Positions 3,001 through 6,000 of a stretch of 64,000 bases of DNA are shown piece by piece. The stretch's first letter is position 1, and every line of letters starts with the position of its first letter. This DNA is from Enterobacteria phage VT2phi_272. Made by a program: the position numbers. The stretch is from sequence record NC_028656.1; one strand, given 5' to 3'.

Positions 3001-6000
3001 CGTTCACTCTGACAATTCGTTGATCAAGTCACGGTATTTATTCAGTTCTTGCAACGCCTTACATGCACCCTCCCATCGTTTCTGTTTCCGCCCGGCGCGG
3101 CGCGCTTCTTTCCGTGATTTACGTAGCAGGTCACCTATAATGTTGTTCTGCACTGGCTGAACTGGCTGAACTGGTTGAACTGGTTGAACTGAATCAATAT
3201 CTGTTTTGCTTCCAACTCCCTCTACTGCCTGCCAGATGCCGTTTTTTACCTTTACGATCCCCTGGTTTTTCAACTTCCACAGCGTATCAATGACGTCATT
3301 CAAATCAATATTGAGACCTTTAGAAATGCTGTCGGCTGTTGCTTTTCCTAATTTGTTCAATTCTGTGAGTACGGCGTTCATTTTTTTCTCCTGATATTTT
3401 AATGTCGGTGGGGGTGTTATGCGATTGGTGAGGTGTCAGCTTCTTCTACCAGCTTTTCCAGTTCATCCAGCTTTCGGGAAAGAATTTCACCAAACAGATG
3501 AAGTTCTGTATCTGCTGTGATCGGGATCGGAACAAAGCGTATTCCACTTCTGGCAAGTTGATTTGCGATTTCCAGGCACTGCCTTAATTCAACTGGTGAT
3601 GCCTTTGTCAACGTCGTTTTTTCGCTCATTGGTTTTCTCCAGAAATTTAACAATACCCGGAACCATCTCAATGGATGGTGTTCCGCATTGGTTACCCCAG
3701 ACATCAAATCCATGCGAGGTGTGACGGGCGAACAGTTCTATCCGGGGAACATCGCCAAGAAGTTGCACAAGTTTTTCTCGCGCCATATCCGGCTTGCGGG
3801 AGTGATCAAGGCGCGGTGCAGTGAATGACTGGATTATTCCGGCGTTAATGCGTTCAGGCAGATTTCCTTTCACTGCAAAAAGGCAGTCTTCGCTGTTAGC
3901 GCGAGTGGTGCTACCCATACCCATGACCAGCTTGTCGGTCTGTCTTTTCCCGCATTTGTTCCAGGTTAATCCTTTCATCGTCACCAGACGAAAGCCCCAC
4001 GCTTCTACAACCTTCAATGCTTCAAGTGGTTGTGTAGGCACCCACCACATAGCCAACAGGCAATTATCGGCTGCCAGTTCCCATACCGGGAGGCGGCAGA
4101 TATCCAGAAGACTCATGACCGGATATTTAAAACTTGCACCGCGTTGACCATCGGTTGCTTTGTCTCGGAATGTCCAGGGGGGATCTGCGTAAATGAGAGT
4201 GTATTTTTTCGTCATAGCGCGTTTTCAAACTCATCAATGTAAAGTCCTGCTTTAATCAGTCGGCGACGGCGTTCGGCCTTTTGCACGTATTCCTCGCGAC
4301 AGTTTTTTGCTGCGTGTTCACGGCTTCTGCGACTGAATGGAGGAACGGCATTGCGTGAGCGAGGTGTGTCACGACGAGGATTTGATTCGAGGGAGAAAAA
4401 GCGATCAACGATTCCGGTGTCTGTGGTGAATGGTTCTGAAGCCTTTATTTTCACAACCTTACTGCCCTTTGTCAGGCCGCGAGCTACCTTGTTGAACTCG
4501 CAAAGTGAAACACCAAATTTCTCTGCTATTTCACTGCCAGTAACAGGACGACCACGAGACTGAATCATCCAGGTGACGCGTTCTTTTAACCCACGGAAGG
4601 CACCGGGCCTTCCAGAACGCCTGTAGAAAGCGATCTGTTTCAAATTTTTGTCTCCAGATATGAAAACCCCGACGGGATGTCGGGGATGGTAGGGGAAGTT
4701 ACAGGCTTAACGAGAAGCCTTTTCGGGAATTTCGATCTGACAGTCTTGAAATATCCTGTAGCGTGCGGCGCATTTCTTCCGTCAGATGTTTGAAGGCGTT
4801 AAATTCAGCGACAGCCGCATCGACGTTATAGCCCTTGCTGTGTAGTTCGTTGAGGATACGCATGGTTGGGCTTGGCATGTCGAAGAGTACAGAAACGTCC
4901 AGGTTAAGAGTTTTTCGATCAACATAGCTCATCATGGAGTAGGGGTGGTGCTCTGAAAACCACGATAGAGGGTAGTTGATAGATAGTGTTGATTCTGGAA
5001 GCTGAAGTTGTTCTGGGATTTTTTGACTGAAATAGCAGTCTTCCAGTTTTTCGAACACTTCCCACGCCCGATCGGTTTCGAGCATTTTTGCGTGACGGGC
5101 TGCGCCGCGTTCTGTCCAGAGGATGAGGGAGCGAACGTTACGGGCGATTTTCACAGAGTAGTTAAAAGCTACTCTGTGCTTGAACTCACGTAAAGTTTCA
5201 CCTTCAAGTTTGAAGAAGTGTTTTTCCTCAATGAAACGACCTTTGTTTTCGTGGTGATTCTGGCGAATACGAATAGCTTCTGTGCCGTAAAGGTGCGCCA
5301 AAAGTTCGGTAGTGATAACGGGGATCTGCTTGTAAGTAATCGTGGAGAGTGTTTCAACAGAAACTTGAGTTGTCATTATGACGCCCTCGAGTGGTTTCTA
5401 AACTATCACCACCGTTAGGTTCGAATCATCGGGTGGTGAGACGTACAGGGTTCGAACTACCGGGAAACCAACCGGCGAGCTTTTCAGCTCCCCTATACGC
5501 CCCACCATAATTCAGATGTGCGCGTGCATACGACAATAAAAAACACGCTCGCGGCGTGTCTCTGTCGCGGTTTCTATCCGGGGTTCGAATCCCGACGGTC
5601 AACTCGACCGTGCGAAGAATATAATCCCGGATATGTGTTGTCGTCAACAAGTGGCGTGCTATCATCGAATAGTGTTCTATCCTACTCAGTGAGGTTTAAC
5701 ATGCGTACAACCCAACAATTCAGCATTACATTAACCAACGAAATGGCTGACATGGTGCGCGCCCGTGTGGCTTCCGGTGCATACGCTTCAGAAAGCGAAG
5801 TTATTCGTGAAGGGCTTCGTGCACTGAATGAACGCGACAAAGCAATGGAAGCGTGGTTAATACACTCAGCCGCGCCGCCACTCGACGCTATTCGTGAGAA
5901 CCTAGGCAAAGGGCACTCCATTTCACAGGTTCGCTCTGAGATTCGCGCCCGGAACTAATCTGCATGGCATATGAAGTGCCACACTAACAAACTGCTCCAG

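Follow-up and report, generated by a model that had tools for sequence, protein, structure and literature searches.

The closest described relatives of the loci reported here are the immI region of phages P1 and P7 (Citron and Schuster 1990), in which the sites a1 and b1, the c4 RNA and the sites a2 and b2 precede the regulated open reading frame (ORF), and the isrK-orf45(STnc1160)-anrP locus of the Gifsy-1 prophage of Salmonella Typhimurium (Hershko-Shalev et al. 2016, PMC4825925). At the Gifsy-1 locus, the IsrK terminator is partly read through to give a long RNA that is silent in translation. When supplied in trans, IsrK base-pairs with the orf45 region, and translation of anrP increases more than 100-fold; STnc1160, a stable RNA that arises by processing, maps downstream of IsrK (PMC4825925). 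The C4 and c4-a1b1 motifs were defined by Weinberg et al. (2010). Here, we analysed two loci in a 64,000-nucleotide stretch of Enterobacteria phage VT2phi_272 (NC_028656.1), referred to as the window, and found that each carries an IsrK-family RNA and a C4 antisense RNA between a promoter and an antirepressor-type gene. We propose, with a probability of roughly 0.78, that each locus is an immI-type RNA switch of the P1 c4/Gifsy-1 IsrK kind guarding this gene.

Each copy consists, on the minus strand, of a promoter, a short terminated RNA, a leader of approximately 160 nt with the C4 RNA, and the antirepressor-type gene; the copies ahead of genes 1 and 2 are referred to as modules 1 and 2 (Table 1). 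A gapped global alignment gives 62% identity between the two units. An initial annotation of this DNA had proposed a promoter-to-terminator RNA unit upstream of the antirepressor gene at module 1, and all of its elements are present: the promoter hexamers are as described, with a spacer of 18 bp instead of the reported 17; the intrinsic terminator, placed about 80 nt after the promoter, closes the 74-nt RNA; and the conserved leader and the ORF of gene 1 follow. The second copy is likewise found in front of the Rha gene. Three sequence blocks said to be shared, ATGGTGGG, GAACCCTGTA and CGCACATCT, are exact in both copies. A further block, given as GTCGGGATTC.AACCCCG, is also shared, but the copies read GTCGGGATTCGAACCCCG and GTCGGGATTCTCACCCCG and differ there at two positions, not one; this two-base difference falls in the a1 recognition element.

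The whole window was searched with cmscan against Rfam 15 (4227 families) at gathering thresholds. Both isrK and C4, the two models that the initial annotation had named for this check, scored above threshold in both copies. The four matches span their models in full, at E-values between 1.6e-8 and 2.5e-13; together with the z-scores of the C4 folds (-5.4 and -4.15), these values exclude chance. The resemblance to P1/P7 immI and Gifsy IsrK that had been suspected was borne out, P1 and Gifsy-1 giving the same Rfam matches in the same order, and the view that the leader is a structured RNA was upheld by the covariance-model matches, the fold z-scores and the covariation described below.

Table 1. 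Coordinates of the features of the two modules and of the left-end tRNA gene in the window (RNA elements of the minus strand written with a hyphen run from 5' to 3')
Module	Feature	Position	Strand	Basis or remark
1	Whole unit	5647-5377	-	
1	Sigma-70 promoter TTGACG/18/TATATT	5618..5647	-	promoter scan, 10/12 matches
1	IsrK-family RNA, 74 nt	5538..5611	-	RF01394, 53.0 bits (cut-off 50), E 1.6e-8
1	a1 UUCGAAC	5589-5583	-	loop of IsrK hairpin 2
1	b1 GAAACC	5574-5569	-	single-stranded, before terminator
1	Terminator and U-tract	5563-5539 plus U-tract	-	10-bp stem then UUUUUU; folding
1	C4 antisense RNA	5429..5512	-	RF01695, 70.1 bits (cut-off 45), model 1-87/87
1	b' UGGUUUC	5470-5464	-	
1	a' GUUCGAA	5457-5451	-	
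1	Upstream ORF, 36 codons	5398..5508	-	from AUG in C4 5' strand; stop UAG inside b2
1	Alternative hairpin	5406..5439	-	UCACCACC (5439-5432) / GGUGGUGA (5413-5406); a2 UUCGAAC (5425-5419) in loop
1	b2 GAAACCA	5398-5392	-	Shine-Dalgarno GAGGG (5388-5384) 3 nt on; ATG at 5376
1	Gene 1, 225 aa, antirepressor-type, N-terminal ORF6N	4699..5376	-	Pfam PF10543, E 1e-19
2	Whole unit	17606-17330	-	
2	Sigma-70 promoter TTGACT/17/TATATT	17578..17606	-	promoter scan
2	IsrK-family RNA, 76 nt	17496..17571	-	RF01394, 58.7 bits (cut-off 50)
2	a1 UUCUCAC	17546-17540	-	
2	b1 CAAUCGAGG	17531-17523	-	
2	Terminator and U-tract	17516-17501 plus U-tract	-	terminator scan
2	C4 antisense RNA	17384..17471	-	RF01695, 77.1 bits (cut-off 45), model 1-87/87
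2	b' CCUUGAUUG	17427-17419	-	
2	a' GUGAGAA	17412-17406	-	
2	Upstream ORF, 37 codons	17354..17467	-	from AUG in C4 5' strand
2	Alternative hairpin	17361..17393	-	CCACCGC (17393-17387) / GCGGUGG (17367-17361); a2 UUCUCAC (17379-17373) in loop
2	b2 CAAUCAAGG	17349-17341	-	overlaps Shine-Dalgarno AAGGAGG (17344-17338) by 4 nt; ATG at 17329
2	Gene 2, 215 aa, Rha domain	16682..17329	-	Pfam PF09669, E 2e-32
	tRNA-Arg(CCT)	1320-1394	-	beside 414-aa ORF 1515-2759 (+) at integrase position; marks left end

In both copies, the match to the isrK model begins 7 nt past the -10 hexamer; the RNA folds as two hairpins and a terminator. The module 1 RNA carries hairpin 1, then hairpin 2 with a1 in its loop, and then the single-stranded b1 ahead of the terminator. 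A simple terminator scan caught the terminator of copy 2 and missed that of copy 1, which was revealed by folding. Judged by these signals, both RNAs have what is expected of isrK, namely, their own promoter, a Rho-independent terminator, a length of about 75 nt and a position upstream of an ORF6N/ant-type gene.

The minimum free energy (MFE) fold of each C4 RNA coincides with the model structure (-44.2 kcal/mol and z -5.4 in module 1; -43.5 kcal/mol and z -4.15 in module 2). The module 1 RNA has a 17-bp closing stem that encloses two hairpins. Two elements of C4 are left unpaired: b' occupies the hairpin 2 loop, and a' lies between hairpin 2 and the closing stem, in the joining strand. Downstream, the 3' strand of the closing stem can pair with a repeat of the 5' strand. 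The resulting hairpin uses a strand of the C4 stem and is therefore an alternative to the C4 fold; its own loop presents a2. This is the stem for which compensatory changes had been noted at the outset; the changes are real, but the hairpin lies outside either small RNA. The idea that the C4 fold marks a tRNA or an integration site was rejected, as ARAGORN and the Rfam tRNA model find nothing there.

Each of the C4 elements a' and b' is complementary to two sites in its own module, one in the IsrK RNA (a1, b1) and one in the leader (a2, b2), and b2 lies at the ribosome-binding site (RBS) of the regulated gene. Complementarity to the RBS region, which the initial annotation had suggested looking for, is thus present as C4 loops that match sites beside or over the Shine-Dalgarno sequence. 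The RNA of about 80 nt is itself a target-like IsrK/a1b1 element and not the antisense repressor; that position is held by C4 in the leader, as the analogy with P1 had implied.

We then compared the addresses of the two modules. The elements a' and b' and all four target sites differ together between them, and since the a/b sequences have changed at all three sites together, the modules should not cross-react. Nowhere in the window other than at its own IsrK and leader sites does either C4 have paired a and b targets, and hybrid combinations are absent. When loop-site duplex energies are summed, cognate pairs reach -15 to -22 kcal/mol and non-cognate pairs -5 to -12 kcal/mol. By this computational evidence, specificity resides in the a/b sequences, as in immI. 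The strongest non-cognate term came from CCCUUGA (17427-17421) in b' of module 2, which forms seven pairs (-10.3 kcal/mol) with UCGAGGG (5390-5384) in the Shine-Dalgarno region of gene 1; as no matching a-site accompanies it, any cross-talk between the modules would be weak. Loop-versus-site duplexes and exact-complement statistics with non-cognate controls were used here in place of whole-sequence RNAduplex comparisons of C4 with the leaders, which were uninformative because they ignore intramolecular structure.

Covariation was assessed in a MAFFT alignment of 53 sequences that included both window copies and P1. Pairs were counted for a1-a', the cis helices and the alternative hairpin, the a2 and b sites being out of register in this alignment. 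Pairing in the cis structure reaches 98%, against at most 44% in slid controls, and 18 pairs have changed on both sides; within this structure, the C4 closing stem is 100% paired and all five pairs of hairpin 1 have changed on both sides. The long-range a1-a' helix is 97.3% paired, with 5 of its 7 pairs changed on both sides and far lower values in slid controls. For the alternative hairpin, the figures are 94.6% and four pairs (slid controls at most 65%).

To cover the a2 and b2 sites and the range of addresses, IMG/VR was scanned with a pattern that fixes the conserved ends of the C4 closing stem and leaves the loops free (ATGGTGGG N45-72 AACCCTGTAC), which gave at least 120 loci and a non-redundant set of 87 modules among the matches listed, to which the following counts refer. 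Three pattern matches with cores of 75 or 85 nt were chance and were dropped, and loops were extracted by position instead of by MFE parsing, which was unsuccessful for about one-quarter of modules. The 87 modules contain 17 a' heptamers, 15 of them real (at least 15 types). Of the 87 modules, 81 have an exact 7-nt complement of a' upstream and 83 have one downstream, at near-fixed positions, the downstream site 17-18 nt past the core; of 1392 mismatched pairings of a' and module, 17 (upstream) and 2 (downstream) gave such a complement. At least 37-39 types of b' loop were found, with a cognate b2 complement of 7 nt or more in 68 of 84 modules vs 46 of 2879 non-cognate tests. The end of b2 lies 8-15 nt ahead of the start codon, i.e. 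over the Shine-Dalgarno sequence, in 51 of 57 modules. At least 49 a'/b' combinations occur, one a' being found with up to 14 different b' loops, and a' and b' recombine freely on one conserved C4 scaffold. One viral contig (L115) carries two modules about 1 kb apart (2296-2562 and 3301-3567) with the same b' and different a', and it may be asked whether a' by itself is enough to confer specificity.

The ORF opened by the AUG of the C4 5' strand was followed in 64 relatives. Frame 0 from this AUG is open beyond the ant ATG in 37 of them, and frames 1 and 2 usually close earlier. Relative to the ATG, the ORF ends anywhere between -114 and beyond +600, and it spans 8 to more than 200 codons. Because neither the end point nor the peptide is conserved, translation of this ORF in the window is treated as unproven. 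In some IMG/VR relatives (e.g. L007, L008, L013 and L024), it runs in frame into the antirepressor gene with no stop, and would give an Ant protein with an N-terminal extension of about 46 aa if the AUG is used.

Compared with immI, the modules share the order a1, b1, c4, a2, b2 and regulated ORF, the C4 fold and its placement of a' (joining strand) and b' (hairpin 2 loop), the location of b2 over the Shine-Dalgarno sequence, the alternative hairpin around a2, the terminator-bearing a1b1 leader, and the assignment of specificity to the a/b sequences, which is the basis of P1/P7 heteroimmunity. The P1 record (NC_005856) annotates the promoter, a1, b1, c4, a2, b2, icd and ant1 in this order. P1 c4 scores 68.8 bits (RF01695), and its a1b1 stretch scores 51 bits with c4-a1b1 (RF03163) and 35 bits with isrK. 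As the P1 a1b1 leader matches the isrK model and ends in a terminator, IsrK and P1 a1b1 are the same element. In both P1 (3218-3312) and Gifsy-1 (34240-34329), isrK (no clan) and c4-a1b1 (clan CL00128) cover one stretch, one element under two names that are not linked in Rfam. Unlike immI, the window modules control ORF6N and Rha proteins, whereas P1 Ant1 is of the KilAC type (PF03374); no C1 operator is known at the window promoter; and the window belongs to an integrated lambdoid Shiga toxin (Stx) phage, whereas P1 and P7 are plasmid prophages.

The Gifsy-1 locus is similar in its promoter, IsrK with terminator, C4, a2 hairpin, b2 by the Shine-Dalgarno sequence and ORF6N gene; module 1 is 75% identical to it over the whole unit, and the terminator sequence is identical. 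Its Rfam matches are, in order, isrK (79.3 bits), c4-a1b1 (48.1) and C4 (69), followed by STM2616/AnrP (ORF6N). An ORF begins at the AUG of the C4 5' strand there as in the window modules, and the predicted upstream ORF of module 1 is the positional counterpart of orf45. However, orf45 has 45 codons and a stop that overlaps the anrP ATG (ATGA), whereas the window ORFs of 36 and 37 codons end 24-27 nt before the ATG with no overlap. The Gifsy-1 addresses (a' ACGCCAA, b' loop UCGGUGAU) are other than those of the window, which also has no adjacent antQ or isrJ genes, carries two modules in one phage, and has a Rha-domain protein under module 2. Hfq binding, terminator read-through and trans activation of downstream translation have been shown only for Gifsy-1 IsrK (PMC4825925).

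The P4 CI RNA with seqA and seqC has a similar layout, a processed tRNA-like immunity RNA between two complementary target sites, but it acts by transcription termination and on replication genes. In Stx phage Phi24B (HM208303; Fogg et al. 2011, PMC3064807), a promoter-IsrK-C4-a2-b2 unit read by eye lies directly upstream of ant at 18270-18540, with a' GUGCUAA and b' around AUGUUUCGA. Phi24B Ant has 225 aa with an ORF6N domain and is 64% identical to gene 1 over 121 aligned positions (residues 1-118); it differs in its location in the nin region and a rightward operon, its other a/b addresses and its C-terminal domain of the P22-Ant type. Deletion of this ant lowers late-promoter activity after induction, and antisense or small RNAs are not mentioned in that paper (PMC3064807). 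For the APSE phages, c4 and isrK have been reported, together with an analysis of a'/b' against an upstream region and a BRO-family protein nearby.

These likenesses suggest how the window modules may work. The sigma-70 promoter, which looks constitutive, would fire, and most transcripts would end at the intrinsic terminator to give the IsrK RNA of 74-76 nt, with a1 in a loop and b1 single-stranded. Typical of the C4 family is a stable RNA of about 77 nt that RNase P processes out of the leader and that represses ant translation. Read-through transcripts would carry the tRNA-like C4, which could be excised as in P1, where RNase P makes the 5' end, and accumulate. Its a' and b' would then pair with a2 in the hairpin loop and b2 at the Shine-Dalgarno sequence of the downstream mRNA leader, so that ribosomes would be kept from entering and the antirepressor would stay silent in the lysogen; this would apply in cis and also to an incoming phage that shares the specificity. 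Since IsrK bears the same a/b sequences as the mRNA target, it could act as a competitor for C4 or for C4 within the long transcript and so activate translation, an effect that has been measured in Gifsy-1. The steps inferred here from P1 and Gifsy-1 are the RNase P processing, the repression and its relief by IsrK, and the activity and target of the antirepressor. The two modules should act independently on two proteins with a common C-terminal domain.

Several observations weigh against this proposal. The case for it in this phage is built from sequence and structure evidence, and our search of the literature on C4 or IsrK in Stx phages and enterohaemorrhagic Escherichia coli (EHEC) found nothing specific. 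The isrK scores exceed the cut-off by only 3-9 bits, marginal values beside Gifsy-1 IsrK, and c4-a1b1 (RF03163, gathering score 46.7) gave no match at E up to 1 in either module; as the a1 and b1 sites are present all the same, the element appears to work like a1b1 while failing that model. In module 1, b2 falls short of the Shine-Dalgarno sequence by 3 nt. No icd-like ORF lies between b2 and ant in either module, and thus neither the translational coupling nor the Rho-dependent polarity known from P1 can be taken for granted; as the upstream ORFs stop well before the ATG, the coupling of Gifsy-1 may not transfer either. The antirepressor label of both proteins comes only from domain content and annotation.

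The main rival, compatible with most of the data, dispenses with a free C4 repressor and assumes positive regulation as in Gifsy-1: a1 and b1 would pair with a' and b' in the same read-through molecule (structure A) and hide the start of the C4-embedded ORF, IsrK in trans would open this lock, and ribosomes on the upstream ORF would unfold the ant RBS. The a1-a' covariation fits such cis pairing as well as pairing in trans, but the covariation of a2 and b2 with a' and b', and the position of b2 on the Shine-Dalgarno sequence, are left unexplained. Although the frame 0 extension past the ant ATG in more than half of the relatives counts in its favour, the end of the ORF is not conserved, the window ORFs end short of the gene, and the C4 AUG has no preceding Shine-Dalgarno sequence in either copy. 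Conservation and covariation are also seen in the alternative hairpin, whose formation would release the C4 5' strand, and Gifsy-1 genetics and native gels support the lock there (PMC4825925); against this, STnc1160 and P1 c4 exist as stable processed RNAs. We regard this account as a real possibility, though the less probable of the two; the other three rivals are less likely than it.

One of these is that a processed C4 acts on the flanking sites, as equivalents of seqA and seqC, to cause premature transcription termination as P4 CI does. The target-RNA-target layout is shared, and the translation block by P1 c4 is said to lead to secondary transcriptional polarity (reportedly the work of Biere, Citron and Schuster in 1992), which would count for this mode. 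The Gifsy-1 authors themselves liken their locus to P4 seqA/CI/seqC (PMC4825925), but their translational fusions responded 139-fold vs 8-fold for transcriptional fusions; moreover, b2 lies at the RBS in nearly all modules among the matches listed, and the terminator scan found no terminator between b2 and ant in module 1, so that termination of this kind appears unlikely. It is quite unlikely, too, that the IsrK-like RNA is an Hfq-dependent small RNA (sRNA) acting in trans on host mRNAs independently of ant: its variable positions are exactly those that track the adjacent C4 loops, even though the Rfam family bears the name 'Hfq binding RNA' and other Stx-phage sRNAs have host targets (PMC4104026, PMC7547250). 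That the leader is protein-coding, with a functional product of 36 or 37 codons and an incidental RNA structure, is very improbable. Both copies, like Gifsy-1, contain an ORF with an ATG start, and tagged orf45 is translated in Gifsy-1 (PMC4825925), yet the peptides vary widely in sequence and length, the substitutions are compensatory at the RNA level, the covariance models match, and in the literature the orf45 nucleotides are conserved and its amino acids are not.

The immI-type switch would act on two related proteins. The C-terminal regions of genes 1 and 2, about 118 aa each (4699-5052 and 16682-17029), are 69% identical by BLASTP, and the domain of gene 1 is ORF6N, as in Gifsy-1 AnrP. 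No ANT domain was found by Pfam in either window protein. The two genes look like different N-terminal domains fused to one effector domain, each with its own RNA lock. A third ORF (6721-7398, minus strand), named 'anti-repressor' in PA2, has no Pfam match and no C4/IsrK module upstream.

Both loci are 100% identical by megablast to Stx2a-converting phages PA2, PA8, Stx2a_F765 and vB_EcoP_phi349, and by sequence the window is a Stx2a prophage near-identical to PA2, PA8 and F765. The left end of the prophage bears the integrase and tRNA-Arg, ahead of a long leftward early operon, and the PA2 record continues from that operon with a LexA-type repressor and cro, replication genes, Q, tRNAs and stx2AB. 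The left-end coordinates of the window agree with PA8 and F765 and differ from the PA2 record. Both modules are on the minus strand and read the same way as the leftward early operon; module 2 is flanked by a restriction-modification pair and kil, and module 1 is further left, behind a divergent ParD-like antitoxin gene. This ribbon-helix-helix antitoxin gene (5701-5958, plus strand) has a promoter-like site at 5638-5665 (plus strand; TTGTCG/16/TATCAT, extended TG), which overlaps the -35 hexamer of the IsrK promoter, so that the two promoters may interfere with each other. Module 1 was matched by megablast in 672 of 5426 complete E. coli genomes and module 2 in 247. No feature is annotated at either RNA gene in the PA2, F765 and RefSeq E. 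coli records.

Elsewhere in the window, Rfam places STnc100 (28840-29045, plus strand, 207.7 bits) and AsxR (29047-29099, minus strand, 88.1 bits) tail to tail just 3' of stx2B, which is the EcOnc27/AsxR sRNA region previously described in EHEC. An ALIL pseudoknot (33762-33878, minus strand, 121.5 bits), the frameshift signal of the IS3 family, marks an insertion sequence within the late region, and a second IS3-family transposase pair at approximately 2555-3717 splits a methyltransferase gene near the left end (PA2 gp05-gp08).

The kind of system found here is already known, with curated models for both RNAs, of which the window copies are ordinary family members, and the known working of such switches is unchanged by the present findings. 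The only mildly new points are how wide the a'/b' repertoire is and that one Stx2a phage carries two independent locks. Records of Stx2a phages should be supplemented with both RNA genes of each module. We tentatively suggest, at somewhat short of even odds, that the a' and b' loops, together with their partner sites a1/b1 and a2/b2, make up an address code whose parts recombine freely and which gives each prophage or gene a private lock, with IsrK as the cognate decoy that opens it. If this is true, each prophage of a polylysogen, and even two genes of one Stx phage, would run a private antirepressor lock, and P1 c4 immunity, the P4 CI layout and Gifsy-1 IsrK activation would be one mechanism. 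Antirepressors speed the derepression of Stx phages, as seen with Phi24B (PMC3064807), which makes an RNA lock on two of them a plausible point of control over the induction of toxin phages and over cross-talk among the many lambdoid prophages of EHEC. Under such an address code, the two locks would gate two sensor domains (ORF6N and Rha) on one effector domain, and could tune the induction of Shiga-toxin phages.

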